The translations under genes and the position numbers were made by a program. From contig JAZDMX010000003.1 in NCBI GenBank assembly GCA_043800555.1, positions 175,531 through 239,530 on the forward strand: a stretch of DNA of 64,000 bases, given 5' to 3'. Under the pieces are notes generated by a model. It was not told where the DNA came from, did no database searches, and saw only the letters and a program-made list of their open reading frames with translations. Each line of letters starts with the position of its first letter. Position 1 is the stretch's first letter. Below, piece after piece: positions 9,243 to 57,888 of this stretch. Source of the stretch: Candidatus Omnitrophota bacterium (GTDB lineage Bacteria; Omnitrophota; Gorgyraeia; Gygaellales; Profunditerraquicolaceae).

Positions 9243-9269
9243 GCGAAAAACTCAAAAACGAGGCCGAAA

Positions 9270-9767: not shown

Positions 9768-11587
9768 AAAATAACGGGGTTAAGCTTAACTTTTTGCTCG
9801 TAATGCCCCGGCTTGTGCAGAGTATCGGCGACGGGTATGTTTTCCCTCTGGGAGTGGCCTACGTCTCTTCGAGCATGAAAAAGGCGGGGTTTCGTGTTTT
9901 CACGTTGAACCTTAACCACCGCCAGGGGGAGGTTTTCGAAATTATCCAAAAGGCGGTCAAGGAGCACGGTATAGACGTAGTTGCTACCGGAGGGCTTTCT
10001 CCTCAATACCACTTGGTTAAAAGCGTTATAGAGTCGGCGAAAAAGGCCGATAGCCGGATTGTTACTATTGTCGGAGGCGGGATTATTTCTTCCGACCCGG
10101 AAACCGCCATAGAAGCGCTGGAATTTGCCGATTTTGGCGTAATCGGCGAGGGAGAAGCGACTATGTGCGAATTGGCTTCTTGCCTGGAAGCCAAAGGGGA
10201 TTTCTCCAAGGTTGACGGGCTTATCTATAAAGAAGGCCAAGGGTATAAGAAGACAAACTCCCGTAAGGACATCGAGGATATCAGCAGCATCCCCTGGCCG
10301 GATTACGAAGGGTTTGATGTTGAGCAATATCTTGAAACTCCATCAGCCGGGTTCGCCGGGATAAATAAAAAACGGGTGATTTGCATGTTAGGGAGCCGTT
10401 CCTGCCCTTTTAATTGCACTTTTTGCTGCCATACGATCGGTAAGAAATTCCGCCGTCGCTCACTGGATGATTTTTTTGCCGAACTGGATTATTTGGTTTC
10501 CCGTTATAGGATAGAATATGTTTCCATGGCCGATGAGGTATTTGCCCCGGATTTAGCCAGCGCCAAGGAATTTTGCGGCCGCATAAAGAAATATAGTATT
10601 TCCTGGTATGCTGATTTCAGGATCGACAAGGTCAAGCCGGAACTTCTCGGGCTCCTTAAGGAAAGCGGGCTGGAAGTGATGTTTTTCGGCATAGAGAGCG
10701 CGGATAACCGGATCCTTAAGAGTATGCGCAAGGGTATCACTATTGAGCAGATTGAAAAGGTCCTGAAAATGGTATATGAATCCGGAATCGCCAGCTACGG
10801 TTGTTTTATTTTCGGAGATATCGCCGAAACGCTTGAAACTGCCCAGAATACCCTGAATTGGTGGAAGAAGCATAGGGAGTACGCGGTGCATCTTACCCTG
10901 GTTAAGCCGTTTCCGGGCTCTTATATTTATCAATATGCCTGCCAGAAAGGCATTATCAAAGACCGGATCCAATACCTTAAGGATGGCTGCCCGCAGGTGA
11001 ATATTTCCCTGATGGATGATAAGGAATTCGCCTATATCGTGCGCCAAATATCGGAATCCTTGGGCCTGATGGATGCCTTGGGCTCGGTAGAGCTCTTAGG
11101 CCTTGACCCCTTGATGGGCAGAGAAACGATATCCGGGACCTGCGCTAAGTGTTCGCAAAGAAATATCTGGGAAAACATAAAGCTATTCTCTATCGATTAT
11201 ATTTATTGCAGCCATTGCGGGCAGAAATACGAGATCCCTAACCCTCCCCAGCTTAGGGCAAACCTGGACAGGAATATATCCGCATTATTGAGGAAATACG
11301 GCAAGGTCGCTATCTGGGGGATGACCCTTTCGGTTATGGACCTCTTTAAGCATTCAAGAATACTCGCCGATCCCAATGTTTTTCCTATCGATATCTCCGA
11401 GAGCAAGAGAAAAACGGATTTTTTCGGTAAAATAATTTATGCCCCGGATATCTTAGGCGCAGAGAATATTCCGGTTGTGGTAATTGCCGTCCCCTCGCAT
11501 GGCGGGCAAATATCCTGCCAGGTCAAGGAAAACCATCCGGGGGTAACGGAAATAATCGACATTTGCCAATTAGTCGGGTTCAACTAG
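9764..11587 (+). CDS. Cobalamin-binding radical SAM enzyme fused to a Zn-ribbon and a C-methyltransferase C-terminal-like domain (tandem paralog of 7416..9242)
   Basis: ATGA overlap with gmm. The start ATG is at 9764 (MKNNGVKLNFLLVMPRLVQSIGDGY). rSAM motif CPFNCTFC. Zn-ribbon CAKCSQRN...CSHCGQKYE. C-terminal VAIWGMTLSVMDLF...FPIDISESKRK. Confidence 0.85.
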   Translation: MKNNGVKLNFLLVMPRLVQSIGDGYVFPLGVAYVSSSMKKAGFRVFTLNLNHRQGEVFEIIQKAVKEHGIDVVATGGLSPQYHLVKSVIESAKKADSRIVTIVGGGIISSDPETAIEALEFADFGVIGEGEATMCELASCLEAKGDFSKVDGLIYKEGQGYKKTNSRKDIEDISSIPWPDYEGFDVEQYLETPSAGFAGINKKRVICMLGSRSCPFNCTFCCHTIGKKFRRRSLDDFFAELDYLVSRYRIEYVSMADEVFAPDLASAKEFCGRIKKYSISWYADFRIDKVKPELLGLLKESGLEVMFFGIESADNRILKSMRKGITIEQIEKVLKMVYESGIASYGCFIFGDIAETLETAQNTLNWWKKHREYAVHLTLVKPFPGSYIYQYACQKGIIKDRIQYLKDGCPQVNISLMDDKEFAYIVRQISESLGLMDALGSVELLGLDPLMGRETISGTCAKCSQRNIWENIKLFSIDYIYCSHCGQKYEIPNPPQLRANLDRNISALLRKYGKVAIWGMTLSVMDLFKHSRILADPNVFPIDISESKRKTDFFGKIIYAPDILGAENIPVVVIAVPSHGGQISCQVKENHPGVTEIIDICQLVGFN

Positions 11588-14676: not shown

Positions 14677-16764
14677 ATGTTAATGTTGATTTTAATAAAT
14701 TTGGCGGTAATCTTAAATTCCGTAATTCTTGCCAAGAATCTCTTTAAGGCCAAGGGGGCGGGCGATTTTGTCCTTGTGGCGTTTATCTTGTTTTTTTCCC
14801 AGATAATCCTGGTTGAGTTGATTCTGGGCAGCCTGGGGCTGTTCTATTTCCCGTATATCTTCCTGGCAAATATCTTTATCCTTGGGTTAACGGCATTAGC
14901 TTACCGCCGGAAACCTTTATCATTTCCGGTTAAAGTTGATATCGGGCCTTTTATCGGCAATAACCTGGTTCTATTGGCTTTGGCGGTTTTTGGGTCATTT
15001 TTCCTGGTAAAGTCGTTTATTAATCTAATTAATCCTCCCATAAGCCCGGACAGCCTGCAATACCATCTTGCCTTTCCGGCTACCTGGATAAGAAACGGCA
15101 ATTTAGCCAATCCAATCTGCATATTCGGATCCATGCCTATGGCAATTCCTAATGCGCTGGAAACCAGCGCTACTTCTTTTTACCCCATCAATGCGCAGCT
15201 ATTCTTTGCCTGGCTTATGCTCCCTTTGCGGAATGCCTTTCTAGCAGATTTAGGAGAGTTCCCCTTTTACATTATCGGCATAATAACCGTATATATGATT
15301 TTGAGGAAATTTGGAGTAAAGAAGGAGATGGCTCTTTTGTCCGGTTTCTTGTGGGCCTTGATCCCGAATATCTTTAAGCAGCTTAGAACGGCTTCGCAAA
15401 TAGACCTAATTTGCGCGGTCATGTTCCTGTTAATGGTATACGCTATTCTGTTGTTCAAGGAAGAACCTGGCATGAAGCGCGCGGTATTATTCGGTATTTC
15501 CGCGGGGATCTTCCTGGGGACTAAAGTCATAAATATTGTTTGGTTTATAGCCGCGCTCCCGTTCTTATTATATGTATTTTACAGGTCTTCCAGAGCCCTT
15601 AAATTTGGGGCGGTTAAGATTACCCTTATGTCCGGCAGCATAATTTCTATGGTATTCTTATTCGGCGGGTTCGCTTATATAAGAAATTTTATATTTACGG
15701 GTAACCCGTTTTTCCCGGTAGACTTGAAAATCTTCGGAGTAACTGTTTTTAAGGGGTTACTGGATAGCGCTTCCTACAAGGCTTCGATTGCTTCCGGGGA
15801 CCAGTTTAATTTGGCGAGGATTTTGTTTAAAGAAGGCTTGGGCGTGCAGTTTTTGGGGTTGATTTTACCGGGCATCCTCATTCCGTTTATTTTCTACAAT
15901 CAAATAAGGAAAAAAGCCAAGCCGCTGGGTGGGTACCTGTTATTTCTTATTACGCCTTTTTTAATAATTGCATTGCATGTCATTTTTGTTAATATCTATG
16001 TAGTGAGGTATTTATTCCCGTTTTTAAGCATAGGATTGGTATGCGCCGTAATTTTCATAAACTTGATCGAGCGCAAAGAAAGGTATTTCTACTTCATTGC
16101 CTTTGTTTGTATCCTGGCATCGGCTTCTGAATTGGCGCACCGGGGGGAACTTATTGTTTCTGTTGCGCTAGCGGCTGTCTTATTCGCTACTATGCTTTTG
16201 TTCAAAAAGCAGCTGGTCTCTTTTTATAGAGGCCGGGTTTTCAATAAGGCTTTAGCGGTTTTTTTGATTTTAGGGCTATTCTCGTTAGGTTACCTTAACG
16301 TTTTATATAATAAAGTGGAGTTTGAGCGCTATCCTTTGACTTTTAGCAAAAAAGAAGCCTGGCAGGCGGATATAGCCAGGGGATGGCAGAAACTTAATGA
16401 ATTGACTGATCCCGGGGCGAGGGTCGCTTATACCGGGCGGCAGGAGTTTTACCCTCTTTTTGGCTCGGGGCTGAAAAACCACGTAAAATATGTTTCGGTT
16501 AATGAAAAAGAGGTTGCTCCCTATAATAAATTTGACGGTTCCTTCAGGAGGCTCAAGGATGGTTCTTGTTGGGGTAAAAACCTGAAGAAAGATAAAATTG
16601 AGTATTTATTTGTTGCGCAGCCGTACTTGGATAATAGGGAGTCGCCAGACCCGGAGGCGTTCCCTATTGAGGACGAATGGGCTAAAGCAAGCCCCGGAAA
16701 TTTCAAATTATTGTATAGCAATTCTATGGTCCATATATACCGGGTTTCTTTAAGCGGGGGTTAA
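14677..16764 (+). CDS. Polytopic membrane protein with a large C-terminal extracytoplasmic domain; putative GT-C-fold glycosyltransferase
   Basis: About 12-14 hydrophobic segments over roughly 500 aa, then a ~200-aa soluble tail. Conserved DSLQYH loop motif near the N-terminus. Paralogous to 18909..20957. Confidence 0.55.
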   Translation: MLMLILINLAVILNSVILAKNLFKAKGAGDFVLVAFILFFSQIILVELILGSLGLFYFPYIFLANIFILGLTALAYRRKPLSFPVKVDIGPFIGNNLVLLALAVFGSFFLVKSFINLINPPISPDSLQYHLAFPATWIRNGNLANPICIFGSMPMAIPNALETSATSFYPINAQLFFAWLMLPLRNAFLADLGEFPFYIIGIITVYMILRKFGVKKEMALLSGFLWALIPNIFKQLRTASQIDLICAVMFLLMVYAILLFKEEPGMKRAVLFGISAGIFLGTKVINIVWFIAALPFLLYVFYRSSRALKFGAVKITLMSGSIISMVFLFGGFAYIRNFIFTGNPFFPVDLKIFGVTVFKGLLDSASYKASIASGDQFNLARILFKEGLGVQFLGLILPGILIPFIFYNQIRKKAKPLGGYLLFLITPFLIIALHVIFVNIYVVRYLFPFLSIGLVCAVIFINLIERKERYFYFIAFVCILASASELAHRGELIVSVALAAVLFATMLLFKKQLVSFYRGRVFNKALAVFLILGLFSLGYLNVLYNKVEFERYPLTFSKKEAWQADIARGWQKLNELTDPGARVAYTGRQEFYPLFGSGLKNHVKYVSVNEKEVAPYNKFDGSFRRLKDGSCWGKNLKKDKIEYLFVAQPYLDNRESPDPEAFPIEDEWAKASPGNFKLLYSNSMVHIYRVSLSGG

Positions 16765-18908: not shown

Positions 18909-20957
18909 ATGCTTATTTTCTTATTGTTAAATATGCTTGTCTTATCCGGCGCATTTCTTATGGCCTGCAGGTTTTTAGAGATCAAAGGCGCCGTTGATTC
19001 TATTATAGCCTTGTTTGCGGTTTATCTTGCCCAGATTGTATTTATCGAGCTTCTCCTGGGGGTATCAACCGTCTTGTGCCTGAAAAATGTTATCTTACTG
19101 GCCGTAGCTTTTTTCCTCGCCGCATATTTGTTGGCCAAAAACAGGCAGGGGGCCAGGCAGCCGTTGAACTTTAGTTTGTATTTCGAGAAGCTGTTAAGTA
19201 ATAAACTCCTTAGCCTTGTTTTCTCCATCGCCGTTTCCTTTGCCGCGGTAAAAATCGTGGTTAATCTCTTGAATCCGCCATTCGGCTGGGATTCGCTTAA
19301 TTACCATTTCACTTTCCCCGTAGAATGGCTTAAGCACGGCAATCTTAATACCCCGATTACGGTATTCGATGATCCTAGCCCGACTTATTACCCTATTAAC
19401 GGAAGCTTATTTTATCTTTGGTTAATAATGCCGTTTAGTTCCGTATTCTTGGCGGATTTAGGGCAGTTGCCGTTTTTTATCATCGCGGTAATTTCTGTTT
19501 ATGGGATTTCCCGGAAAATAGGCTTAAATAAAAAGAATTCATTCTTTGGCGCGCTATTATTTGCCCTTATCCCTAACTTTTTTAAACAGCTGCAAATAGC
19601 CTATGTGGATATAATGGTGGCTGCTTTGTTTTTGGCGTGCGTGAATTATTTACTTATCCTGCGGAAAGAATTTAGCCAGCGTAACGTTTTTATCTATAGT
19701 TTAAGCCTGGGCCTGCTGATAGGGACCAAAACCACGGCTTTACCGTTTAGTATTTTGTTGATTATCCCGTTTTTGGCGGGGTTGGCTAAGAGCGATAAGA
19801 AAATCCGTTTTGGCCTGGTATTCATGTTTTGTATTTTAGTTTTCGGCGGTTTCAGCTATCTAAGGAATTTTATCCAGACGGCTAACCCGGTATATCCGCT
19901 GGATTTTAAATTATTTAATTTGCACATATTTAAGGGCGTCCTGGATAAGTCTGTTTATGCATCGCATTTTACCGGTTCGGATTACTCCCTCGGAAAAATG
20001 CTCTTCCACGAGGGCTTGGGAGCGCAGGCGTTATTCTTGATTTTACCCGGGATTTTCCTGGCTTTACCGGTAACGTTTATTAAAAATAAAAGGAAGCTTG
20101 ATTTTAACTTTTCTTATTTTCTGTTACTGCCTATTTTTATCTATATTGTGTACAGGTATATCGTGCCTTTAGCCAATGTAAGGTATTTGTACGCGATGAT
20201 GGGCTTGGGGGTGATCCTCGGTTTTTATCTGCTGGAGTTGCTGAAAGCCAAAAGATGGCTGATAAGCGTTTTGGTTATTGTTTGCGTTTTGTCTTCTGTC
20301 CCTTCATTAGCTAAGCGCCAGGAATTGGTTTCTGCTATTATCCTTTCGGCGGCGCTTTTCTTGATTCTAATTAATTCCGGTAAAATCAGTTGGTTTAGGA
20401 GAAACAGGGTCTTTTGGGCTATGATTATTGCCTTAGCTACCAGCTTGCTTTTTTGGGCAAAGGGGTTCTATTCGGCAAACGAGTTCCCCCGTTATTATAA
20501 GATGGCAAGGTATTCCGGTTTCTGGCCGGATGCCGCAAAAGCCTGGGATTGGTTAAATATAAACAGCGTGGGAAATAACATCGCTTATACGGGCAGGGCT
20601 GTGCCGTTCCCATTATACGGAAGCGGCCTGAAGAATAACGTATACTACGTTTCCGTAAACAAAACCCAACCTGCGAAATTACATTATTTTAGCGGCAGCA
20701 AGTATGAGTATTGCCCCGGGTTTGAAAGCCTTTCTAAGGCCATAAACCAGGGTAATAATTACCGGGGAAATGCCGATTACGATGTTTGGTTGAGCAATTT
20801 GTTACAGGCCAATACCGATTATCTTTTTGTCTATTCGCTGCAGCAGACAAAAGACACGATATTCCCGGTTGAAGATGCCTGGGCAATTGCCCATCCGGAT
20901 AAGTTTAATCCGGTATTTTCAAACAAGACGATACATATATATAAGGTGGCCAAGTGA
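18909..20957 (+). CDS. Polytopic membrane protein, paralog of 14677..16764; putative GT-C-fold glycosyltransferase
   Basis: Shares LNPPFGWDSLNYHFTFPVEWLKHGNL and the C-terminal YTGRAVPFPLYGSGLKNNVYYVSVN with the paralog. Confidence 0.55.
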   Translation: MLIFLLLNMLVLSGAFLMACRFLEIKGAVDSIIALFAVYLAQIVFIELLLGVSTVLCLKNVILLAVAFFLAAYLLAKNRQGARQPLNFSLYFEKLLSNKLLSLVFSIAVSFAAVKIVVNLLNPPFGWDSLNYHFTFPVEWLKHGNLNTPITVFDDPSPTYYPINGSLFYLWLIMPFSSVFLADLGQLPFFIIAVISVYGISRKIGLNKKNSFFGALLFALIPNFFKQLQIAYVDIMVAALFLACVNYLLILRKEFSQRNVFIYSLSLGLLIGTKTTALPFSILLIIPFLAGLAKSDKKIRFGLVFMFCILVFGGFSYLRNFIQTANPVYPLDFKLFNLHIFKGVLDKSVYASHFTGSDYSLGKMLFHEGLGAQALFLILPGIFLALPVTFIKNKRKLDFNFSYFLLLPIFIYIVYRYIVPLANVRYLYAMMGLGVILGFYLLELLKAKRWLISVLVIVCVLSSVPSLAKRQELVSAIILSAALFLILINSGKISWFRRNRVFWAMIIALATSLLFWAKGFYSANEFPRYYKMARYSGFWPDAAKAWDWLNINSVGNNIAYTGRAVPFPLYGSGLKNNVYYVSVNKTQPAKLHYFSGSKYEYCPGFESLSKAINQGNNYRGNADYDVWLSNLLQANTDYLFVYSLQQTKDTIFPVEDAWAIAHPDKFNPVFSNKTIHIYKVAK

Positions 20958-31835: not shown

Positions 31836-32396
31836 GTGAAAGTTGTATTTTTAGACAGGGACGGGGTAATTAACAGGTATCCGGGGGATAAATTATACGT
31901 TACTTCGGTTAAGAAGTTTTATTTTCTACCGGGGGTAAAAAGAGCTATTGCCAAGTTAAGTAAAAACGGATTCAAGGTTTTTGTTGCTTCTAACCAGGCT
32001 GGCGTTGGCAGGGGCATATACTCCAAGCGCGCCCTTGAAGCTATAACCCGAAAGATGCTTACGGCAATAGAGAAGGCTAAAGGGAAAATCGATAAGGTTT
32101 ATTATTGTACCCATCGTAAAGACGCTAACTGCCTTTGCCGGAAGCCAAACCCCGGGTTATTGAGAAATGCGGCAAAAGAATTTAAATTCTGCCTTAAGGA
32201 TTCATTTTTTATAGGCGATACCATCCGTGACGTAATTGCCGCTAATAACGCCGGCTGCAAATCAATCCTTGTCCTTTCAGGAAAAGAAAAACTTTCAAAC
32301 CAAAAGCACTGGGAAGCCAGGCCGGATTTTGTCTTCAGAGATTTAAATGCCGCCGCCAGCTATCTTGTGCAAAATCAGCCCTCAACAAAAAAATGA
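31836..32396 (+). CDS. gmhB: D-glycero-D-manno-heptose 1,7-bisphosphate phosphatase (HAD family)
   Basis: MKVVFLDRDGVIN (HAD motif I). Zn-finger insert CTHRKDANCLCRKPNPG. Confidence 0.85.
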   Translation: MKVVFLDRDGVINRYPGDKLYVTSVKKFYFLPGVKRAIAKLSKNGFKVFVASNQAGVGRGIYSKRALEAITRKMLTAIEKAKGKIDKVYYCTHRKDANCLCRKPNPGLLRNAAKEFKFCLKDSFFIGDTIRDVIAANNAGCKSILVLSGKEKLSNQKHWEARPDFVFRDLNAAASYLVQNQPSTKK

Positions 32397-33484
32397 AAGT
32401 ATTTATAATCTATGCTTCCGCAGGAGCAGGGCACCGCCGTGTAGCCGAGGCGGTGTATAATTATCTCAAAGAGCGCCGCCCGGAGCTTGAAATTAGAATA
32501 ATTGATATATTGGATAAGGCAAATTCCGTATTAAGGTTTGATTATACTAAAGGTTACGCCTTTCTGATAAGGCATGCGGTTTGGCTCTGGAGCTTTGCGT
32601 TCTGGTTGACTGAAACCAAAGCGCTTAGGCCCTTGAGCCGGCTGGTATCCTCTTTGGCCGACCGGGTTAGCGCCCGCCAATTCAGCAATTTTTTAGTCCG
32701 GGAAAACCCTGATTATGTTATCTCTACGCATTTTCTGCCTTCGGGGATAGCCGTTTATTTGAAGAACAAAGGGAGAATAAGTTCCTTTGTTATGACTATA
32801 ATTACTGATTTCGGCGTGCATCCTTTTTGGATCTGGGAAGGGACTGATTTATACATGGCGGCATCGGAATTTACCAAGGGCAAACTCCTTAAAGAAGGGG
32901 TTTCCGAGAAGAAGATAAAAGTATCCGGGTTACCGGCGGATATGAAATTCTTAAAAAAATTCGATCGCGTAAGCCTTGCGGCTAAAATCGGGATAGCCGC
33001 GGATAAATTCACGGTTTTGCTTATGACGGGCTCATTCGGGACAGGGCCGCTGGAAGAAATCAGCGGGTTGCTATGCCGGGACCTCCAGGTGTTGGTTGTT
33101 TGCGCCTCTAACAAGAAACTTTACGAAAGAATGAATGAAATAAACCTTCCGAATACAAAAGTTTTCGGATTCGTGGATAATCCCGAAGAATTGATGGCGG
33201 TTTCCGATGTCATCCTGACTAAGCCCGGGGGCTCCACCATAGCCGAGATTATCGATATGGAATTAGTGCCGGTATTTATTTCGGCGATACCGGGGCAGGA
33301 AGAAGGCAATGTTGAAGCTTTGGCCAAGGCCGGAATAGGTTTGGCCCCTAGGGGTATTTATGAGATACGGGATCTGATCCTGGATTTTAAGGATCATCCT
33401 GAAAAGCTCAAGAAAGCCAAAGAGGCAGTACGGCAGATTAAGAAACCTTATGCTTGCCAGGAGATTTCCGGTGTTATACGCTAA
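32393..33484 (+). CDS. GT28-family glycosyltransferase (MGDG-synthase/UgtP-like)
   Basis: MKVFIIYASAGAGHRRVAEAV N-terminal MGDG_synth domain. C-terminal GT-B (Glyco_tran_28_C-like) domain. Confidence 0.7.
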   Translation: MKVFIIYASAGAGHRRVAEAVYNYLKERRPELEIRIIDILDKANSVLRFDYTKGYAFLIRHAVWLWSFAFWLTETKALRPLSRLVSSLADRVSARQFSNFLVRENPDYVISTHFLPSGIAVYLKNKGRISSFVMTIITDFGVHPFWIWEGTDLYMAASEFTKGKLLKEGVSEKKIKVSGLPADMKFLKKFDRVSLAAKIGIAADKFTVLLMTGSFGTGPLEEISGLLCRDLQVLVVCASNKKLYERMNEINLPNTKVFGFVDNPEELMAVSDVILTKPGGSTIAEIIDMELVPVFISAIPGQEEGNVEALAKAGIGLAPRGIYEIRDLILDFKDHPEKLKKAKEAVRQIKKPYACQEISGVIR

Positions 33485-35369
33485 GATTGCGATTGGCCTG
33501 CCGGTTAATGGGCCGTTTGATTATATTGTCCCCCCTGATTTAGTTGCCAAGATTGCGCTTGGCCAGAGGGTTTGGGTAAGTTTTGGGAGAAGGCGCTTAG
33601 TCGGTTATGTGGTAGGTTTCGCCAAAAAGAGCGAGGTAAGGAACTTAAAGCCGGTTTCAGAGCTAATCGACAGCCGCCCGGTATTATCCGAAAGCATGCT
33701 TTTGCTTACCAGGGAGCTTGCGGAGTATTATTATTGTTCCTGGGGGCAAGCTATTGAAACAGCTATCCCGGAAGGCTTGAGAAAAGGCAAAAAAACGGAC
33801 GCGGAAAAGGGGGACGTTTCTACTTTTTCCAGGCCTAGCGCTGGAAAAAGTAGAAACGTCCCCCTTTTTCCGGAAACGCCACATTTTTCCGAGTTTCCTC
33901 TTGTGGAGTTAATCCATGATTTGGATGGAGAGGCACGCTGGGATATCTATGCCTCCAGGATTAAAGAAGGCCTGGAGAAGCAATTATCGGCAATAGTTTT
34001 ATTGCCGGATATCCCCGAAGTGATTAAGGCCGCGGGTATCTTCAGGGAGCGCCTGGGGATTGAGGCCCAAATTTTATACCGTCAACAACCCAGAGAGACG
34101 CAAGAATGGTTAAGGGCGGGCTATTCAGATACAAAGCTTGTCATTGGGACCCGTTCGGCGATTTTCGCGCCATTAAATGATTTGGGGCTAGTGATTATCG
34201 ATGAGGAAGAGGATTCCGTGTATAAGCAAGAGCAGGCCCCGCATTACCATGCGCGCAAAGCCGCTTTTTTGCGGGTTAAGCTTAACCGGGCTAAACTTAT
34301 TTTAGGAAGCAGTTCGCCGTCCTTGGAAAGTTTCTATTTATGCGAGAAAAAGAAGGCCGAGTATACAATTCTTCCCAGGAAAAAGGTTTTTCCGGAAATT
34401 AAGGTTATCGATATGCGGCGCCTGCCATTTTCTAAAAGGGAAGGAAAGGCAGTTTTCTCCGGTTTACTGGAAGAGGCGATTTATGCCGTTTTGAATGAAA
34501 AAGGCAAAGCACTCCTTTTTCTTAACCGCAAAGGTTTTGCTACATCCTGCGTTTGTCAGTCCTGCGGGAAGATACTTAAATGCCCGCGTTGCAGTATAAA
34601 TTTGGTTTACCACTTTAAGGGCGATTTATTGAGTTGCCATTATTGCAATTATAAAATTCAGGCCCCTAAAATATGCCCGGAATGCAATTCCGGATATATT
34701 AAATTTTCAGGCAGCGGCACCGAAAAGGTAGAGAGCGAGCTTGCCAGAAGGTTCCCGCTGGCGCGCCTTAAAATAATCGATGAGGCAAACACAAACTTAG
34801 AAGGCGCGGATATCTTCATAGCTACCAGCAGCGTAATTAAACAGCCTAACCTCGATTTTGATCTTATCGGAGTCTTGGGGATAGATAACGCCTTGAACCG
34901 GGTTGATTTTCGGGCCACGGAGAAGGTCTTTGGTTTATTGTCGGGGCTCCTTAGGCTTACCAGCAAAAAGTTATTCATCCAGTCAGCAACCCCTGCGCAC
35001 CATTGTTTCCAGGCGTTGCTTAGAAAAAATACGAATTTATTCTACGAAGAAGAATTAAAGCAAAGAAGGCAATTGGATTTTCCTCCCTATAAGCATATGA
35101 TTATCGTGAAACTGCGCGGCAAGCTTCAGGAGAAGGTCAAGGCCGCCGCCGCTCTGTTATTTAACAAGCTCAAAGAGGCAGGCAAGGACAAAAGCATTGA
35201 AATCCTTTCGGTTAATCCGTATAGCCCGGCTAAGTTGCGGGGTAACTTCTATTGGCAGGTTTTGATGCGTTCAAGCAAGGTCATTGCAGCGGGCAGTTTT
35301 CTAAAAAATAATTTAAAAGATTTCCGGCATTCAGGTATAATAGTGACCGTAGACGTTGATCCGTTATAG
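33471..35369 (+). CDS. priA: Primosomal protein N' (PriA) homologue with degenerate helicase motifs and an in-frame palindromic insert
   Basis: N-terminal 3'-DNA-binding domain and the Cys-rich region CQSCGKILKCPRCS...CHYCNYK...CPECNS align to PriA. Walker A reads DLDGEARWD, Walker B reads DEEE, and the motif VI arginines are absent. Probable GTG start at 33471; the track ATG is at 33450. Confidence 0.8.
   Translation: MLYAKIAIGLPVNGPFDYIVPPDLVAKIALGQRVWVSFGRRRLVGYVVGFAKKSEVRNLKPVSELIDSRPVLSESMLLLTRELAEYYYCSWGQAIETAIPEGLRKGKKTDAEKGDVSTFSRPSAGKSRNVPLFPETPHFSEFPLVELIHDLDGEARWDIYASRIKEGLEKQLSAIVLLPDIPEVIKAAGIFRERLGIEAQILYRQQPRETQEWLRAGYSDTKLVIGTRSAIFAPLNDLGLVIIDEEEDSVYKQEQAPHYHARKAAFLRVKLNRAKLILGSSSPSLESFYLCEKKKAEYTILPRKKVFPEIKVIDMRRLPFSKREGKAVFSGLLEEAIYAVLNEKGKALLFLNRKGFATSCVCQSCGKILKCPRCSINLVYHFKGDLLSCHYCNYKIQAPKICPECNSGYIKFSGSGTEKVESELARRFPLARLKIIDEANTNLEGADIFIATSSVIKQPNLDFDLIGVLGIDNALNRVDFRATEKVFGLLSGLLRLTSKKLFIQSATPAHHCFQALLRKNTNLFYEEELKQRRQLDFPPYKHMIIVKLRGKLQEKVKAAAALLFNKLKEAGKDKSIEILSVNPYSPAKLRGNFYWQVLMRSSKVIAAGSFLKNNLKDFRHSGIIVTVDVDPL
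33804..33869. repeat. 66-bp perfect palindromic element (27-bp arms GAAAAGGGGGACGTTTCTACTTTTTCC around an AGGCCTAGCGCT core) lying in-frame inside priA
   Basis: The right arm GGAAAAAGTAGAAACGTCCCCCTTTTC is the exact reverse complement of the left. The core GGGGACGTTTCTACTTTT is shared with the 41008-41064 copy. Confidence 0.85.
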
Positions 35370-35386: not shown

Positions 35387-36349
35387 ATGAAGATAGTCTT
35401 TTTTGGTAGTTCTCGTTTCGCCGTTCCTTCTTTGGAGGCTTTGATAAAGAGCCGTTATGAGGTTTGCTGCGTTGTGACCCAGCCCGATAAGAAGAAGGGC
35501 CGGCACTTGCATTTAGGTTTTACCGATGTTAAGTCCTTGGCAAATAAGGCGGGGTTAAGGGTTTTTCAGCCGGTGAGCATAAATTCCAGCGATTCAATAG
35601 GGTATTTGAGGAATTTGTCCGCGGATGTTTTTGTCATTGTCGCTTACGGCCAGATTTTATCGCAGGAGGCCCTGCTCCTTGCGAAGATATTCCCGATAAA
35701 CATTCACGCTTCGCTATTGCCCAAGTATAGGGGCGCGGCGCCAATCAATTGGGCGGTTATTAACGGCGAAAAAAACACCGGGATAACCGTGATTAAGGTA
35801 ACCCGGAAGATGGATTCCGGGCCCCTGTTAATGCAAAAAGAAATGCCCATTTCTGAAACCGACGATTCGGAAACCTTGGAAGATAAATTAAGGAGACTTG
35901 GAGCAAAATTATTGGTGGATGTGCTTAAAGAAATAGAAAAAAAATCTTTTAAGCTGATTCTTCAGGACGAAAAACAGGTGATAAGCGCTCCTAAATTGAA
36001 GAAAGCCACTGGTTATATTGATTGGGGCAGGAGCGCAGATGAGATCTATAATAAGGTAAGAGGATGCCTGCCGTGGCCGGGCGCCTTTACTTATTATAAG
36101 GGTAAACTGCTTAAGATTTATAAAGCGGAAATTATCCCCCGGGGCCATCATCTGCAAGATCCGCTAGCTCGGGGTGGCGCGGACAATAAACCGGGAACTG
36201 TGCTTAAGGCGGATAAACAGAGCCTGGAGGTTGCGGCCGGAGAAGGCTCTTTACTGATTAAAGAGTTACAGCTTGAAGGCGCCAGGCGCATGCCTGCCGC
36301 AGATTTTATTGCCGGGCACAGAATTAAGCCGGGAGAAGAGCTTAAGTAA
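35387..36349 (+). CDS. fmt: Methionyl-tRNA formyltransferase
   Basis: MKIVFFGSSRFAVPSLEAL...VVTQPDKKKGR ... SLLPKYRGAAPINWA. Confidence 0.9.
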   Translation: MKIVFFGSSRFAVPSLEALIKSRYEVCCVVTQPDKKKGRHLHLGFTDVKSLANKAGLRVFQPVSINSSDSIGYLRNLSADVFVIVAYGQILSQEALLLAKIFPINIHASLLPKYRGAAPINWAVINGEKNTGITVIKVTRKMDSGPLLMQKEMPISETDDSETLEDKLRRLGAKLLVDVLKEIEKKSFKLILQDEKQVISAPKLKKATGYIDWGRSADEIYNKVRGCLPWPGAFTYYKGKLLKIYKAEIIPRGHHLQDPLARGGADNKPGTVLKADKQSLEVAAGEGSLLIKELQLEGARRMPAADFIAGHRIKPGEELK

Positions 36350-36378: not shown

Positions 36379-37755
36379 ATGGACCCTTCGGCCAGGCCCG
36401 GTTACCTAGACTTCTTATTTTATGCGTTCATTTTAATCGTATGCTATTTTTCTTTTAACCACCCGGATTTACTTTCTCCGGCCGTAAGCTCTTTTACCTA
36501 CCTGAACGGGCATATCAAAGATTTCTATGCAGTTAACAGCGCCCTTGAACTCGGGAATAACTACCTTCCTTCATCTTACATCCTATTTGCTATCTGGAAT
36601 ATCCCGGTAAAGTTGTTGGGGATAGCCGCCAGCCTGGACGCAGGTTACTTAATATTCTGGTATAAACTTTTAACCACGCTTTTTCTGGCTGCCGCGGGTT
36701 TCCTTATGTATAAGATCGGCCGGAGCATAGGGCTAAGCAAGAAAGACTCAAGACTGCTGACAATCATCTGGTTTTCATCGCCGATTCTTTTCTTCGGGCA
36801 GTTCATATTCGGCCAAATCGATATCTTTACCGTCTTTTTTACATTGGCCGGCCTGTATTATCTCCTTCAAAAGAGATTAATCCTTTTTACGCTATTTTTC
36901 GCAATAGCCGCCACTTTTAAGTATTTTCCTTTTTTTATATTCTTGCCGTTATTATTGCTTATTGAAAAGAGGCCTTTTAAATTGGCCGGTTATTTGTTTT
37001 TATCGCTTTTGCCCGCAGCGCTGGAAACATTATTTTACCTGGGTTCCCCGGAATTTGTATCCGGGGTAATCGGCTTTATAGGCGCCGGCCCCAGGATTTT
37101 CCAGGCGCACTTAAGCGTATTCCAGGGTGTAAGCATATACTTATTCCCCTGCCTCTGGTTTGTTATCTGCGGGGTATGCTTTTATACCGACTTATCAAAA
37201 GATAAATTTGCGTTCTATCAGGCGTCTTTGTATGTTTGCCTGGCGGTATTATGCCTGTTATTCGCCTTGATCTTTTGGGGCCCTCAATGGCTTACTTTCT
37301 TAACGCCATTTCTCGCGATTAACTTATTTATGAATAAAAGGATCAAAAGTTTATTACTGCTTGATTTCATAATGATGATCGCGTTTGTGGGATATGTTGT
37401 CAGCATTTTCCCGATGAACGTTGACCAGCAGTTATTTAGCTGCGGCGTATTGGGGAAATTTAACCCGGATCTATTTGTTCCGGAGAAAACGCTTATAATG
37501 AAAGCGATTTTCAGCCCGCTTGAGGTTAATTTCGCAAGCTTTTACAATATCTATTTTACGTTATTCTGTGCTACCCTCATATTGTACGTTTTGCTTAATT
37601 TTCCCTCCAAGGATAACGCCTGGAAAGGCCCGCATGCGCTTGTCCCGGTAAATGAATATTGGAGTTATGCCCGGTTGCGTTTTTTTGGAGGCGTGGCAAT
37701 CTTTATTCTCCCGGCTTTTTTTGTTTATCTCTACGCGTTTTTTCGATATAGATGA
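36379..37755 (+). CDS. Polytopic integral membrane protein of unknown function (possibly GT-C/DUF2029-like)
   Basis: More than 10 hydrophobic segments and no recognisable soluble domains. Confidence 0.5.
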   Translation: MDPSARPGYLDFLFYAFILIVCYFSFNHPDLLSPAVSSFTYLNGHIKDFYAVNSALELGNNYLPSSYILFAIWNIPVKLLGIAASLDAGYLIFWYKLLTTLFLAAAGFLMYKIGRSIGLSKKDSRLLTIIWFSSPILFFGQFIFGQIDIFTVFFTLAGLYYLLQKRLILFTLFFAIAATFKYFPFFIFLPLLLLIEKRPFKLAGYLFLSLLPAALETLFYLGSPEFVSGVIGFIGAGPRIFQAHLSVFQGVSIYLFPCLWFVICGVCFYTDLSKDKFAFYQASLYVCLAVLCLLFALIFWGPQWLTFLTPFLAINLFMNKRIKSLLLLDFIMMIAFVGYVVSIFPMNVDQQLFSCGVLGKFNPDLFVPEKTLIMKAIFSPLEVNFASFYNIYFTLFCATLILYVLLNFPSKDNAWKGPHALVPVNEYWSYARLRFFGGVAIFILPAFFVYLYAFFRYR

Positions 37756-37820: not shown

Positions 37821-38846
37821 ATGCCAGAGCTAAGAAAAGATCCGATTATAGGCAGGTGGGTAATCATCGCTACCGAACGGGCTAGGCGGCCGGACCAGTT
37901 CAGCGGAAAGCAGGAAGAGCCTTCCGCAGAAGAGCCCTGTCCTTTTTGCAGCGGTGCGGAATCCCAAACCCCTCCGGAAATTTACGCCATAAGGCAGCCT
38001 AATACCCAAAGGAATGGCCCCGGATGGGAATTAAGGGTTATCCCGAGCATTTCCCCGTTTTTAAGGATCGAGGGTGAACTGGGCAGGAGGGGAAACGGCC
38101 TGTACGATATGATGAACGGGATAGGGGCCCACGAGGTTATCGTTGAAACTGACCGGCATGTCGCTAATATGAGCGATTTGAGCGATGAGCAGATAACCAA
38201 GGTTTTAAAATGTTATTCGGACAGGATAACGGATTTAGAGAAAGACAAGCGTTTTAAATACGTTTTAGTTTTTAAGAATTACGGCAAAAGCGCCGGAGGC
38301 GGTTCTTTGAAGCACTCCCGTTCGCAGCTTATTGCTACTCCGGTAAATCCCAAGAGGGTAAAGGAAGAGCTTGCCGGCTCCAAGCAATATTTCGATTATC
38401 ACGAAAGATGCATATTCTGCGATTTAATCCGGCAGGAATCTGAACAGAAAGAGCGGCTTGTCCTTGATTTGGACGGTTTTATCGCAATTACCCCGTTTGC
38501 GGCGCGCTTTCCATTCGAGACCTGGATATTGCCTAAAAAACACTGCGCTGATTTTACCTCTCAAGACCCCGAATCTATGAAGTATTTGGGGAAAGTTATG
38601 AAGATCGTCCTTTCAAAGCTTAAAAAAGGGTTGAATGACCCTTCGTATAATTACGTTATTCACACGGCTCCTTTTCGCCGGCAAAAGGCAGGTTATTGGA
38701 AAACGGTGGATCAGGACTATCATTGGCATATTGAAATCATGCCGCGGCTTACCCGCGTAGCCGGGTTTGAATGGGGAACGGGTTTTTACATTTGCCCTTT
38801 ACCGCCGGAAGATGCCGCCGCTTTTTTAAGGGGAATCGAAGTCTAA
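37821..38846 (+). CDS. Galactose-1-phosphate uridylyltransferase-family (HIT branch III) protein, variant with HSRSQ in place of the HPHxQ active-site motif
   Basis: DPIIGRWVIIATERARRP and the Zn site CPFCSG are present. The active-site region reads GKSAGGGSLKHSRSQLIATP. Confidence 0.8.
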   Translation: MPELRKDPIIGRWVIIATERARRPDQFSGKQEEPSAEEPCPFCSGAESQTPPEIYAIRQPNTQRNGPGWELRVIPSISPFLRIEGELGRRGNGLYDMMNGIGAHEVIVETDRHVANMSDLSDEQITKVLKCYSDRITDLEKDKRFKYVLVFKNYGKSAGGGSLKHSRSQLIATPVNPKRVKEELAGSKQYFDYHERCIFCDLIRQESEQKERLVLDLDGFIAITPFAARFPFETWILPKKHCADFTSQDPESMKYLGKVMKIVLSKLKKGLNDPSYNYVIHTAPFRRQKAGYWKTVDQDYHWHIEIMPRLTRVAGFEWGTGFYICPLPPEDAAAFLRGIEV

Positions 38847-38847
38847 A

Positions 38848-39843
38848 ATGGCCGAATTAAGAAGAGATCCGATAGTAGGCAGATGGGTGATTGTGGATAC
38901 CGAACATCCAAGCGCCCCCCAGGATTTTCAATACGAGCAATACATCCAAAAAGGAGGGACTTGCCCTTTTTGCTATGGCAGCGAGGCGATGACCCCGCCG
39001 GAAATAGACGCTATCCGCGAACCGGGGACTGCCCCGAATACCGCGGGTTGGCAGGTGCGCGTAGTCCCCAATAAATTTCCCGCCCTTCAGGTTGAGGGCC
39101 AGTTAAACAGAAGGCCGCAAGGCATGTATGATATGTCCAGCGGAGTCGGCGCCCATGAAGTATTGATTGAGACGCCGTATCATGCCAAGGATATATGCGA
39201 TTTATTGCCGCTTGAAGCGGAGAATTACTTAAAGATGTGTTGCCGGCGGGCAATAGATTTGGCAAAGGACAAGCGTTTTAAGTACCTTATGTTTTTCAGG
39301 AATTTTGGTTCTGCCGCCGGAGCTTCCTTAGAGCATCCGCACACTCAGATTGTAGCTCTTCCTATGGTCCCTAAGAATGCCCTTGAAGAGATCCACGGGG
39401 CCAAGAGTTATTACGATTATCGCGAGCGTTGTATATTTTGCGATATTATCAGGCAGGAAGAACAGGAGAAGAGCAGGTTAATCCTGGAGAATAAATATTT
39501 CGTATCTTTTTGCCCTTTTGTTTCCCGTTTTCCGTTTGAGATTTGGATAATGCCTAAGAAGCATAGCGGTGCCTTTTGTTTTATGCCGGCTGAAGAAATA
39601 TCGGCTTTGGCGGCTATCCTTAAAGAAACAATAGCCAAGATTAAAAAGGTGTTCGTAAACCTTTCCTATAATTATATTATTCATTCCGCTCCGATTAATG
39701 GCGACAAAGAAGTAGAATATTATCATTGGCATATCGAGTTTATGCCTAAGCTTATGCAAGTGGCGGGTTTTGAATGGGGCACGGGTTTTTACCTTGATTT
39801 GACCTCTCCGGAATTAGCCGCAAAATACCTAAAGGCAGCCTAA
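38848..39843 (+). CDS. galT: Galactose-1-phosphate uridylyltransferase-family protein (canonical HPHxQ)
   Basis: DPIVGRWVIVDTEHP, CPFCYGSE, and LEHPHTQIVALP with the nucleophile His intact. The start follows 1 nt after the upstream stop. Confidence 0.8.
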   Translation: MAELRRDPIVGRWVIVDTEHPSAPQDFQYEQYIQKGGTCPFCYGSEAMTPPEIDAIREPGTAPNTAGWQVRVVPNKFPALQVEGQLNRRPQGMYDMSSGVGAHEVLIETPYHAKDICDLLPLEAENYLKMCCRRAIDLAKDKRFKYLMFFRNFGSAAGASLEHPHTQIVALPMVPKNALEEIHGAKSYYDYRERCIFCDIIRQEEQEKSRLILENKYFVSFCPFVSRFPFEIWIMPKKHSGAFCFMPAEEISALAAILKETIAKIKKVFVNLSYNYIIHSAPINGDKEVEYYHWHIEFMPKLMQVAGFEWGTGFYLDLTSPELAAKYLKAA

Positions 39844-40990: not shown

Positions 40991-41064
40991 ATGGGGACGT
41001 TAGATAATGGGGACGTTTCTACTTTTCCGGAACTAGGCTAAAGAAAAGTAGAAACGTCCCCATT
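40991..41064. repeat. Second copy of the palindromic element (20-bp arms ATGGGGACGTTTCTACTTTT / AAAAGTAGAAACGTCCCCAT) preceded by a partial direct repeat ATGGGGACGTT, in the gap-to-downstream intergenic region
   Basis: Perfect stem at 41008-41027 pairing with 41045-41064. Partial duplication at 40991-41001. Followed by TTTCTTT, so it may double as the gap terminator. Confidence 0.8.
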
Positions 41065-55603: not shown

Positions 55604-56299
55604 ATGAAAGAACGTATATTTAATAATAAGGGGAGAGCGGCTTGTATGCTTTATGCTTTATTCTGCATGCTGTTTTTAGCCGGTTGCGGCACTCTCCCTT
55701 ACGTAAAACCTTCCTTAGTAAAGCCTCCTGCGGGGATGTCAGGCACTTATCATAGAGTAGAAAAAGGCCAAACACTCTGGAAAATATCTAAAATCTACGG
55801 AGTTGACCTGGATGAGTTGGCTCGCCTAAACCGTATAACCGACGCCTCAGCAATAGAAACCGGGCAGCAAATATTTATCCCTAACAGGATAAAGCCTGTG
55901 CCGCAAACACTTAAATACGGCAATAATGATGATTTTATTTGGCCGTTGCGCGGCAGGGTTATCGGTTCTTTTGGCCAAACTATTGATAATATGCAGAATG
56001 AGGGCATAAATATAGAGCCTTCCCGGACTTTGGATATCCTGGCTTCCAGGAGCGGGAGAGTAGTCTTTACGGATGAAGATTTCACCGGGTTGGGAAAGAT
56101 GGTTATTATTGAACATGGCGACGGGCTATTTACCGTTTATGGGAGAAATTCGGTAATTCTCGTTAAAGCGGGAGATAGTGTGGAGAAAGGCGCGCTTATC
56201 GCCAGGGCCGGCTCTAGCGGCAGGCAGAGGAACGCCTATTTGCATTTTGAAGTCAGAAAGGGAAGCGTCCCTAAAAACCCCTTATTTTATTTGCCCTGA
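55604..56299 (+). CDS. LysM-domain M23 family metallopeptidase lipoprotein
   Basis: Lipobox FLAGC. LysM YHRVEKGQTLWKISKIYGVDLDELARLN. M23 core GINIEP...HLHFEV. Confidence 0.85.
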   Translation: MKERIFNNKGRAACMLYALFCMLFLAGCGTLPYVKPSLVKPPAGMSGTYHRVEKGQTLWKISKIYGVDLDELARLNRITDASAIETGQQIFIPNRIKPVPQTLKYGNNDDFIWPLRGRVIGSFGQTIDNMQNEGINIEPSRTLDILASRSGRVVFTDEDFTGLGKMVIIEHGDGLFTVYGRNSVILVKAGDSVEKGALIARAGSSGRQRNAYLHFEVRKGSVPKNPLFYLP

Positions 56300-57888
56300 T
56301 GAAAAAAACATACTTTGGCCGTAAATATTACGAGGATATACTTACCAAGCGGGTAAATGGTTTAAAAGAGGATTACCGCCAGAATATTGCTTTGGTAGGC
56401 GATGAATTGGTAGGTAAGACCTCTATTATTTTTGATTTTCTCGACAGGTTCCAGGACAACCTGATTATCCCTCTTTATCTCGACGTAAGGCCGGAGTCGG
56501 CAGTTTCGTTTTCAAGAAGGTTTATAGGGGTATTGCTCTATAATTTCCTTCTTAACAGCGCAATGGCGTTGAAAGAAGACCTTGATTTCCTTATCAGCAA
56601 ATCTGAAAAATATATCCCCCAGACAATCGAAAAAGCAAGGTCAATCCTGGATGATTTAAGCAAAAGGAAAAAAAAGAACATATTTACGGAACTGAATTTA
56701 CTTTGTGAGCTTATTCATTTTGAAACCGGCAAGTATTGCGTGGTGGTCTTCGATGAGTTCCAGAACTTAGAGAGTATAGGTTTCCCCAATCTGTACCGCG
56801 ATTGGTCAAAAGCCCTTATTTCAAACAAGAACACGATGTACATAATCGTAAGTTCCATGAAATTCAAGGCCAAACTTATCCTTTCTAAAAACCTTTCTTT
56901 GCTCTTCGGTAACTTTGAAGTCGTAGAGGTCAAGCCGTTTGATATAGGAATGAGCACGGAGCTACTAAAGAACAAGCTCTCCGGGGTTAAGCTGGCATCC
57001 CCCTTAATCAACTTCATCATTTATTTTTGCGGCGGTTATCCTATGTACCTTGAGGTTATTGCCGGAGCTTTGTTGAAAAAAGAAGGCCGGGCGCTCTCGG
57101 AGATACTGGAGGAAGAGCTTTTTGACTCTACCGGTATCTTAAACCAAAGGTTTTCCAGTTATATCAAGGGTTTTCTTGACCATCCGCACAGTAACGACTA
57201 CATATCGATACTGTATCTGATCTCAAGCGGCAGGAACAGGATCAAGGATATCTCCCATTTTTTAAGGATGCAAAAGAGCAAAGTTATCTCTCGGATTAAC
57301 CGCCTTTTGGAGATCGATACCATAAACCGAAGCGGCGATTTCCTGCAGATTAACGACCGCGTATTCAGTTTCTGGATGAAATTCGTTTATCAGGGGAAAC
57401 TCCATTCGCTTACCTTTGATGCTAAAAACCAGAAAGCTAAATTTCGCGATAGCATTGAAGAGATAATCCAGGAATTTATCCTCCAGGGGCAAAAGCCGCT
57501 TATGGAGAGAATGAATGAGCTTTTGGGCTCTTTCGAGGACGAGATGATCCAAATGGAGAAAGGCAAAGTCCGTTTAAACCATTTACGGGAAATCAAACCT
57601 TTGCAATTCCGCAGCCAGGTTTTTAATAACGGGTTAATCGGCCGTTCAAGCGACAGCCTTTGGATTGTTGCGGTAAAGCAGGATTTGCTTACCGAGGAGG
57701 ATATAGTTGAATTTTCCCGGGAGTGCAGGAGATACCGGCATAAGCTTCAGAGAAAAGTAATCGTAACCCTTAAAGATATCGACCTGAATACAAGGTTAAG
57801 GGCGCTGGAAGAAAAAATCTGGACCTGGGATATTAACAGGTTGAATCAAATCCTTGATTTGTATTCTAAGCCAAAAGTTATCGCTTAG
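56299..57888 (+). CDS. AAA+ ATPase of the Arch_ATPase (PF01637-like) family with a C-terminal DUF234-like region
   Basis: Walker A VGDELVGKTS. Walker B VVVFDEFQNLE. Confidence 0.55.
   Translation: MKKTYFGRKYYEDILTKRVNGLKEDYRQNIALVGDELVGKTSIIFDFLDRFQDNLIIPLYLDVRPESAVSFSRRFIGVLLYNFLLNSAMALKEDLDFLISKSEKYIPQTIEKARSILDDLSKRKKKNIFTELNLLCELIHFETGKYCVVVFDEFQNLESIGFPNLYRDWSKALISNKNTMYIIVSSMKFKAKLILSKNLSLLFGNFEVVEVKPFDIGMSTELLKNKLSGVKLASPLINFIIYFCGGYPMYLEVIAGALLKKEGRALSEILEEELFDSTGILNQRFSSYIKGFLDHPHSNDYISILYLISSGRNRIKDISHFLRMQKSKVISRINRLLEIDTINRSGDFLQINDRVFSFWMKFVYQGKLHSLTFDAKNQKAKFRDSIEEIIQEFILQGQKPLMERMNELLGSFEDEMIQMEKGKVRLNHLREIKPLQFRSQVFNNGLIGRSSDSLWIVAVKQDLLTEEDIVEFSRECRRYRHKLQRKVIVTLKDIDLNTRLRALEEKIWTWDINRLNQILDLYSKPKVIA

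Follow-up and report, generated by a model that had tools for sequence, protein, structure and literature searches.

In PriA, the 3′ DNA-end-binding domain (3′BD) binds the 3′ end of the nascent leading strand, the helicase core together with the aromatic-rich loop binds single-stranded DNA, and the Cys-rich region (CRR) is required for primosome assembly. The PriA of Deinococcus radiodurans carries a Lys-to-Arg change, has no ATPase or helicase activity, binds single-stranded DNA, forks, and DnaB, and is a pseudohelicase by experiment (Lopper, Boone and Morrow 2015; PMC4504706). In Escherichia coli, the priA300 allele (K230R) supports restart without ATPase activity and the cells are much like wild type (PMC5778457). 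A review of the field names Deinococcus as the only exception. Here, a priA-like gene (positions 33471–35369, + strand) is described in 64,000 nucleotides of DNA (the window; coordinates are counted from its first nucleotide) from a Candidatus Omnitrophota bacterium (GenBank assembly GCA_043800555.1, contig JAZDMX010000003.1, positions 175,531–239,530). With a probability of roughly 65%, the gene encodes the PriA ortholog of a large Omnitrophota clade, probably its sole PriA, which has turned into a pseudohelicase.

A PriA Homolog without the Helicase Motifs

The identity of the gene product as a PriA homolog, proposed in an earlier sequence-only reading of the window, is confirmed by profile searches. 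The protein passes the curated threshold of the NCBIfam model TIGR00595 (priA; 388.3 bits, cut-off 230.35) and matches Klebsiella pneumoniae PriA (4NL4, E 1e-75) in a phmmer search of solved structures. Pfam recognizes PriA_3primeBD (PF17764, E 1e-26), Zn_ribbon_PriA (PF18319), and PriA_C (PF18074, E 8e-13), and finds no match to DEAD, ResIII, or Helicase_C in the protein; for each of the NCBIfam PRK05580 sub-models the score stays under the model's own cut-off. Because TIGR00595 is passed, annotation pipelines will name the product “replication restart helicase PriA.” The closest genome (UBA6233) encodes a protein with 76% amino acid identity. The open reading frame (ORF) is intact and contains 632 codons from a GTG at 33471 to the TAG at 35367–35369, with an alternative in-frame start at ATG 33450 (639 amino acids). 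The GTG, which is also the start chosen in the sequence-only reading, corresponds to the start of the relatives (MLYAK) and gives the F-D-Y of the 3′-end pocket the same numbering as in E. coli PriA (residues 16–18).

The protein was aligned residue by residue with 4NL4 and with the canonical PriAs of 15 other genomes. All six of the superfamily 2 (SF2) helicase motifs Q, I, II, III, V, and VI are replaced or deleted (the motifs and domains given below all lie on the + strand). Within the former motif I (Walker A, 33909–33953), where LIHDLDGEARWDIYA replaces LLHGVTGSGKTEVYL, the canonical GVTGSGKTEVY (GITGSGKTEVY in 4NL4) reads DLDGEARWDIY; beyond the change of the Walker lysine to arginine, the first glycine is replaced by aspartate, Ser-Gly by Glu-Ala, and the threonine by tryptophan. 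The former motif II and the aromatic-rich loop occupy 34200–34256, with DEEH-D changed to DEEE-D ahead of the loop YKQEQAPHYHAR, and the former motif III (34305–34331) reads GSSSPSLES in place of GSATPSLES. Motif V (34818–34850) has IATSSVIKQPN where canonical proteins have (V/I)GTQMxAKGxxF, that is, GTQMxAKG has become ATSSVIKQ, and approximately 15 amino acids are deleted directly upstream. In motif VI (34935–34970) LLSGLLRLTSKK replaces LTQVAGRAGRGxxxG; the canonical QVAGRAGRG (QVSGRAGRAGK in 4NL4) corresponds to LLSGLLRLTSK and both arginine fingers are therefore gone. Canonical Omnitrophota PriAs carry the Q-motif helix (LTxEQxxVL) approximately 25 amino acids before Walker A, and this helix is deleted here. 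The alignment thus reproduces the three replacements listed in the sequence-only reading (DLDGEARWD with Lys to Arg and Thr to Trp in Walker A, DEEE for DEEH, and LLRLTSKK in motif VI) and adds the losses in motifs Q, III, and V. As read from these residues, the sites at motifs I, II, III, V, and VI cannot bind or hydrolyze ATP in the canonical way.

A misalignment with an intact GKT elsewhere in the protein, the possibility raised in the sequence-only reading, was searched for with the patterns GK[ST] and GxxxxGK[ST] in the query and 120 homologs, and no candidate for a relocated P-loop was found. The sole GK[ST] of the protein is a GKS at residue 132, which is located in a disordered hypervariable linker and is not shared by relatives, and the GK[ATSV] that relatives carry near residue 350 belongs to the first strand of lobe 2 (KGKxLLFLNRKGFA) and is not a P-loop.

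An enzyme that still hydrolyzes ATP and unwinds DNA by means of noncanonical residues, for example with arginine in place of the Walker lysine, could be proposed on the basis that motif II retains its acidic DEE and that a basic residue occupies the Walker lysine position in 54 out of 80 representatives (see below). However, in E. coli PriA the single change K230R suffices to abolish ATPase activity (PMC5778457, PMC4504706), and the Omnitrophota protein in addition has a replaced glycine-rich loop and a deleted Q motif, has lost motifs III and V together with both arginines of motif VI, and contains no helicase domain that Pfam recognizes. Residual activity of this kind is very unlikely.

Retained DNA-Binding and Zinc-Binding Modules

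The loss of the nucleotide-handling motifs coincides with the retention of the remaining parts of PriA. The 3′BD (33483–33770; PF17764) has kept the complete 3′-end pocket, with F-D-Y at 33516–33524, the glycine of SFGRRR at 33579–33596, and the lysine of NLKPV at 33642–33656, so that all four residues known by the E. coli numbering as D17, Y18, G37, and K61 are present. Alignment A1 shows no variation at F16, D17, Y18, and K60, and the aspartate, tyrosine, and lysine are kept in nearly all representatives. The aromatic-rich loop (YKQ..P.YHAR) is retained with K252, Q253, H258, and Y259 invariant in A1. The CRR (34548–34685; PF18319), a two-zinc module inserted in helicase lobe 2, contains the pairs CQSC, CPRC, CHYC, and CPEC, and no full-length sequence among 150 representatives, whether degenerate or canonical, deviates at any of these eight zinc-ligand cysteines. 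The C-terminal domain (CTD; 35085–35363; PF18074) is predicted with high confidence. The proposal in the sequence-only reading of a PriA that appears ATPase-dead and still carries its DNA-binding and zinc-binding modules agrees, at the level of conserved residues, with the motif losses and with the conserved pocket, cysteines, loop, and CTD. Its description of an alignment with PriA along the whole length holds for the 3′BD and the Cys-rich zinc region and fails for the winged-helix domain, which is absent when compared with E. coli PriA.

A distant degenerate subfamily (P0152, gene 8001–9845 in loci L030/L031) has lost Zn_ribbon_PriA from its Pfam matches while the eight cysteines still align, indicating that the sequence around the zinc ligands is drifting and the ligands are kept.

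An AlphaFold model based on 91 family sequences has a mean predicted local distance difference test score (pLDDT) of 88.4 and a predicted template modeling score (pTM) of 0.87, and the only disordered stretch is formed by residues 112–139 (pLDDT <50). A Foldseek comparison returned PriA for all nine best Protein Data Bank matches, among them 8FAK_H (template modeling score, TM, 0.83), 6DCR (0.73), and 4NL4 (0.73). According to the model, the PriA fold is kept with both RecA-like lobes.

The model fits the fork- and PriB-bound E. coli PriA solved by cryo-electron microscopy (8FAK_H, TM 0.83) better than the apo, ADP-bound, and dsDNA-bound crystal structures (0.73). This difference may only mirror the missing winged-helix domain, or it could point to a dead core that is locked in the conformation of the fork-bound state.

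An Old and Monophyletic Loss under Purifying Selection

The comparison with relatives called for in the sequence-only reading shows that the motif replacements are common to all 120 of the 120 best protein clusters (90%-identity clusters; 50–80% identical, approximately 615 amino acids, many labeled Omnitrophota). The same residues in more than 100 independent clusters are no accident of sequencing or assembly. A wider alignment of 151 sequences (the query and the best 150 representatives at 50% identity) contained 72 proteins that lack every one of the five scored motifs, approximately 50 canonical proteins, and approximately 25 partly degenerate ones. In a neighbor-joining tree from which the motif columns were removed and which included no Deinococcus sequence, the degenerate proteins form one clade with 73 leaves.

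The unsaturated pair L001–L002 gives a ratio of nonsynonymous to synonymous substitutions (dN/dS) of 0.12 at a dS of 0.39. The former helicase lobes show a mean majority-residue frequency of 0.67–0.71 within the close family compared with 0.73 for the 3′BD, and lobes, 3′BD, and CTD together span 0.67–0.79. The replaced motifs are an old, monophyletic trait that is maintained by purifying selection. Since the cysteines are invariant, the aromatic-rich loop and the 3′-end pocket are kept, and the lobes match the other domains in conservation, the loss is selective for the ATPase apparatus.

A decaying pseudogene or an artifact of sequencing or assembly might be suspected from the lost catalytic motifs and from a 64-nucleotide palindrome inside the gene. 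More than 100 independent clusters from many samples share the uninterrupted frame seen here, the dN/dS is 0.12, neither the cysteines nor the DNA-binding residues vary, the fold is predicted with confidence, and the palindrome lies in frame in a linker of variable length, leaving this explanation with a negligible probability. Relaxed selection was likewise rejected on the basis of the dN/dS and of lobes that are as conserved as the other domains.

A number of partly degraded PriA lineages (P0164, P0172, P0173, P0178, P0179, P0189, P0213, P0219, and P0242; taxonomy mostly unlabeled) were observed between the fully degenerate and the canonical proteins in the tree or inside the canonical group. 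They display partial states, for example an intact Walker A with a lost motif VI, or a retained GTQ in motif V with a lost Walker A, which suggests a stepwise or repeated loss of the ATPase.

Gene Neighborhood and Orthology with Canonical PriA

The priA-like gene overlaps the end of an upstream gene for an MGDG-synthase-like glycosyltransferase (32393–33484, +) by 14 nucleotides, and this gene is itself preceded by a GmhB-like HAD phosphatase gene (31836–32396, +); both were assigned by Pfam and form the upstream syntenic pair. Downstream, fmt (methionyl-tRNA formyltransferase; 35387–36349, +; Formyl_trans_N and Formyl_trans_C) begins 18 nucleotides after the priA-like gene. The priA–fmt adjacency is found in loci L001–L008, L011, L028, and L030. 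A longer order (DegT aminotransferase, GT2, HAD phosphatase, MGDG-synthase-like, priA, fmt, a membrane protein in some cases, GalT-like, GalT-like, GAPDH) recurs in each of the 11 degenerate loci with upstream or downstream flanks (L001–L008, L011, L030, and L031), down to 40% identity.

Other Omnitrophota contain a large family of canonical PriAs (approximately 666 amino acids, with DEAD, ResIII, and Helicase_C matches) that occupy the same neighborhood. The closed 1.43-Mb sequence CP070780.1 (L028) carries a canonical PriA in the order HAD, epimerase, GT2, MGDG-synthase-like, UDG, priA, fmt, and in a second locus with a canonical PriA (L016) the HAD and MGDG-synthase-like genes are adjacent and lie approximately 1 kb before priA. 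The shared gene block indicates that the degenerate forms are positional orthologs of canonical Omnitrophota PriA, and the canonical protein in the same slot indicates that the degeneration arose in place, within the Omnitrophota.

A different explanation is that the degenerate protein is an accessory paralog with a regulatory or structural side role in a genome where a second, canonical priA performs restart. The existence of the ~666-amino acid canonical family within the phylum, together with the 64 kb of genome that was available for the priA search, speaks for this explanation. A tblastn search of the window with three canonical PriAs recovered the priA-like gene only, and no other helicase was identified in the window, where 1 out of 47 other main + strand ORFs screened contains a Walker-A-like string and that ORF has no Pfam match. 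Against a paralog, the degenerate gene is located at the ancestral position of priA (HAD, MGDG-synthase-like, priA, fmt), which holds canonical PriA in other Omnitrophota, the two forms fall into separate clades, and the Deinococcus pseudohelicase was described as the PriA of its organism (PMC4504706). Furthermore, no contig >50 kb is shared by the best 120 matches of each type, which is weak evidence because it covers the best 120 of each type. These matches include contigs of 0.65 and 1.43 Mb, and the more distant degenerate P0152 is located on a contig of 1.61 Mb. Positional orthology and the lack of a shared contig make a resident canonical paralog unlikely.

A Proposed ATP-Independent Role in Replication Restart

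Established PriA biology combined with the retained elements points to ATP-independent fork recognition and recruitment of the replicative helicase as the most likely function. The 3′BD would recognize abandoned forks or D-loops, the dead helicase core would hold the lagging-strand template DNA, and the surfaces of the CRR and CTD would serve as a platform that recruits SSB and DnaB, the latter with whichever loader the lineage may use. ATP-driven unwinding would play no part, as for E. coli PriA K230R (priA300) in the PriA–PriB pathway and as proposed for D. radiodurans PriA; the lagging strand might be cleared by another helicase, or the clade might restart only at forks that need no remodeling. 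The sequence-only reading had left the choice between a second canonical priA and a structural restart scaffold, and the kept modules, the purifying selection, and the positional orthology with canonical Omnitrophota PriA favor the scaffold.

Several points weigh against this assignment. The pseudohelicase function is predicted from sequence and a modeled structure, and long-branch attraction could inflate the clade in the neighbor-joining tree. The search for a second priA covered 64 kb of the genome, which leaves room for a canonical copy elsewhere, and none of the possible partners (a DnaB loader, PriB, DnaT, and DnaD) is encoded in the window. Finally, the old P-loop contains a strongly conserved new signature, H-D-x5-[RK]-W, that hints at a kept or new role and that a pure dead scaffold leaves unexplained.

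This signature is part of a close-family consensus across the former motifs (LIHDLDGxARWDIY, DEE[EQD]D, GSxxPSLES, ATSSIIK, and LLxGLLxLTxK). Among 80 representatives without motifs I, V, and VI, the signature persists in a looser form: the position of the Walker lysine is occupied by arginine in 42 and lysine in 12, and that of the threonine by tryptophan in 46 and by phenylalanine or tyrosine in 11 (57 out of 80 with any of the three); the first glycine is replaced by aspartate in 44 out of 80. An altogether new function can be envisaged from these numbers, in which the PriA shell serves a process other than replication restart, such as the sensing of DNA structures, and the former ATP site binds another ligand or partner, given that the new signature (LIHDLDGxARWDxY in the close family) is itself conserved and that R/K (54/80) and W/F/Y (57/80) prevail at the two key positions. 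However, everything that fork recognition and primosome assembly require in E. coli is kept (the aromatic-rich loop and the CTD as well as the 3′BD pocket and the CRR cysteines), the housekeeping synteny with fmt is unchanged, and a conserved Trp/Arg pair can be a mere structural filling of the emptied pocket. A role outside restart is accordingly judged improbable.

Within the preferred reading of a restart platform, a more specific idea, possible but doubtful, is that the emptied pocket has been rebuilt. The H-D…[RK]-W residues and the deletion of the Q-motif helix would then lock the RecA-like lobes in one state and create a constitutively open, one-component platform for helicase recruitment that works without ATP or adaptors of the PriB/DnaT type. 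The fork-bound-like model, which is nearer to 8FAK than to apo or ADP-bound PriA, would fit locked lobes. If correct, the reduced genomes of these Omnitrophota would contain a minimal form of bacterial restart system.

The Linker and a Palindromic Repeat

The winged-helix domain and the Q-motif helix are replaced by a disordered hypervariable linker (33771–33899, +), at a position where canonical relatives carry LTxEQ…. The mean majority-residue frequency of the linker is 0.25 compared with approximately 0.7 elsewhere, and approximately 40 disordered residues stand in for the ~100 residues of the winged-helix domain in E. coli PriA. Loss of this domain as a part of the degeneration was considered and rejected: canonical short PriAs (Omnitrophus magneticus, other Omnitrophota, and Borrelia) also lack it and have their Walker A near residue 160, so that the loss of the domain is older than, and unrelated to, the loss of the motifs, and its presence is no defining feature of PriAs at large.

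A repeat search identified a perfect palindrome with 28-nucleotide arms and an 8-nucleotide loop in frame within the linker (33805–33868). The 64 nucleotides add approximately 21 residues, including the only GKS of the protein, and the insertion is lacking in close relatives. A near-identical second palindrome is located 7 kb downstream at 41009–41061 in the intergenic region before the gene at 41078, and the palindrome core GGGGACGTTTCTACTTTT has four matches in the window where 0.1 are expected. Related palindromes were found in two relatives (L001, 13474–13525; L003, ~6406), one of them again within the priA linker. The palindrome looks like a member of a small repeat family of this Omnitrophota lineage that resembles repetitive extragenic palindromes (REP) or miniature inverted-repeat transposable elements (MITE).

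Other Genes in the Window

Directly after fmt, the ORF at 36379–37755 encodes a hydrophobic, membrane-protein-like product with a match in L001 and L002 and none in L003–L008 and L011. It is followed by tandem GalT/HIT-like paralogs (37821–38846 and 38848–39843; GalP_UDP_transf and DUF4921) that are ~65–90% identical across the clade, compared with ~40–76% for priA, fmt, and the MGDG-synthase-like gene. Four large ORFs have no Pfam match (E ≤ 1e-5): 14677–16764 (695 amino acids), 18909–20957 (682), 36379–37755 (458), and 56299–57888 (529). Two paralogous B12-binding radical-SAM enzymes are encoded at 7416–9242 and 9716–11587 in a region of glycan and cell-envelope biosynthesis genes, and a similar gene lies upstream of priA in L028 and L030. 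The GC skew is positive in every 2-kb bin of the window and essentially all long ORFs are on the + strand; the window appears to sit on one replichore with extreme co-orientation of its genes.

Comparison with Known PriA Proteins

The Omnitrophota protein resembles canonical PriA (TIGR00595; 4NL4, 6DGD, and 8FAK) in the order of its domains (3′BD, two RecA-like lobes with the CRR insert, CTD), in its zinc ligands, aromatic-rich loop, and 3′-end pocket, in its predicted fold (TM 0.73–0.83), and in having fmt as a neighbor. It differs as a degenerate form without motifs Q, I, II (the histidine), III, V, and VI that is approximately 50 amino acids shorter than the canonical Omnitrophota form. The actinobacterial PRK14873 models, to which NCBI gives the name “primosome assembly protein” and not helicase, reach at most 186 bits versus 461 bits for canonical PriA models, and these weak scores place the priA-like protein outside the actinobacterial subgroup. 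UniProt attaches to mycobacterial PriA a caution that helicase domains are not detectable in it. A literature search found no published statement that actinobacterial PriA lacks the helicase motifs. No paper in the literature searched links PriA with the Omnitrophota, and two major phylum-wide genome papers on the Omnitrophota mention no PriA, primosome, or helicase.

The E. coli variants K230R (priA300), K230A, and K230D have no ATPase, helicase, or translocase activity and primosomes are nevertheless assembled (PMC5778457); K230R is the same Lys-to-Arg change at the same position as in the Omnitrophota protein. These variants are laboratory point mutants of an otherwise intact helicase that acts together with PriB, DnaT, and DnaC, and priA300 fails in the PriA–PriC pathway, whereas the Omnitrophota protein is without the whole nucleotide site and the winged-helix domain. 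The restart scaffold proposed in the sequence-only reading has precedents both in priA300 and in D. radiodurans PriA (PMC4504706), the latter a direct one by experiment. Current models are not overturned, as helicase activity is already held to be dispensable for primosome assembly. For the degenerate Omnitrophota clade, “helicase” in the product name is probably wrong.

A close likeness is to the PriA of Deinococcus-Thermus, which shares the Walker A Lys-to-Arg change (here GEARW) and a poor consensus in motifs I and II (here DEEE), is retained as the organism's PriA, and has a proposed role in ATP-independent fork binding and DnaB recruitment. The Deinococcus protein has been assayed; for the Omnitrophota protein, the lost activity and the kept binding are predictions from the missing motifs and the conserved DNA-binding elements. 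The loss in the Omnitrophota is wider (motifs Q, III, V, and VI in addition, compared with the emphasis on motifs I and II in the Deinococcus paper) and occurs in another phylum, in a clade beside canonical Omnitrophota PriA and in the same gene slot. Its place next to canonical Omnitrophota PriA in the tree and the synteny common to both speak for a loss that probably arose independently of that in Deinococcus. The pseudohelicase kind of PriA is thus already known, and what is new is the Omnitrophota lineage, the wider loss, and the large clade: a second, apparently independent, and species-rich pseudohelicase lineage with dozens of clusters at 50% identity, in which the ATPase would have been fully eliminated for a long span of evolution, with strong constraint still acting on the modules for fork recognition and zinc binding. 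The clade may serve as a natural experiment that separates the scaffold role of PriA from its motor role and shows which residues the scaffold needs.

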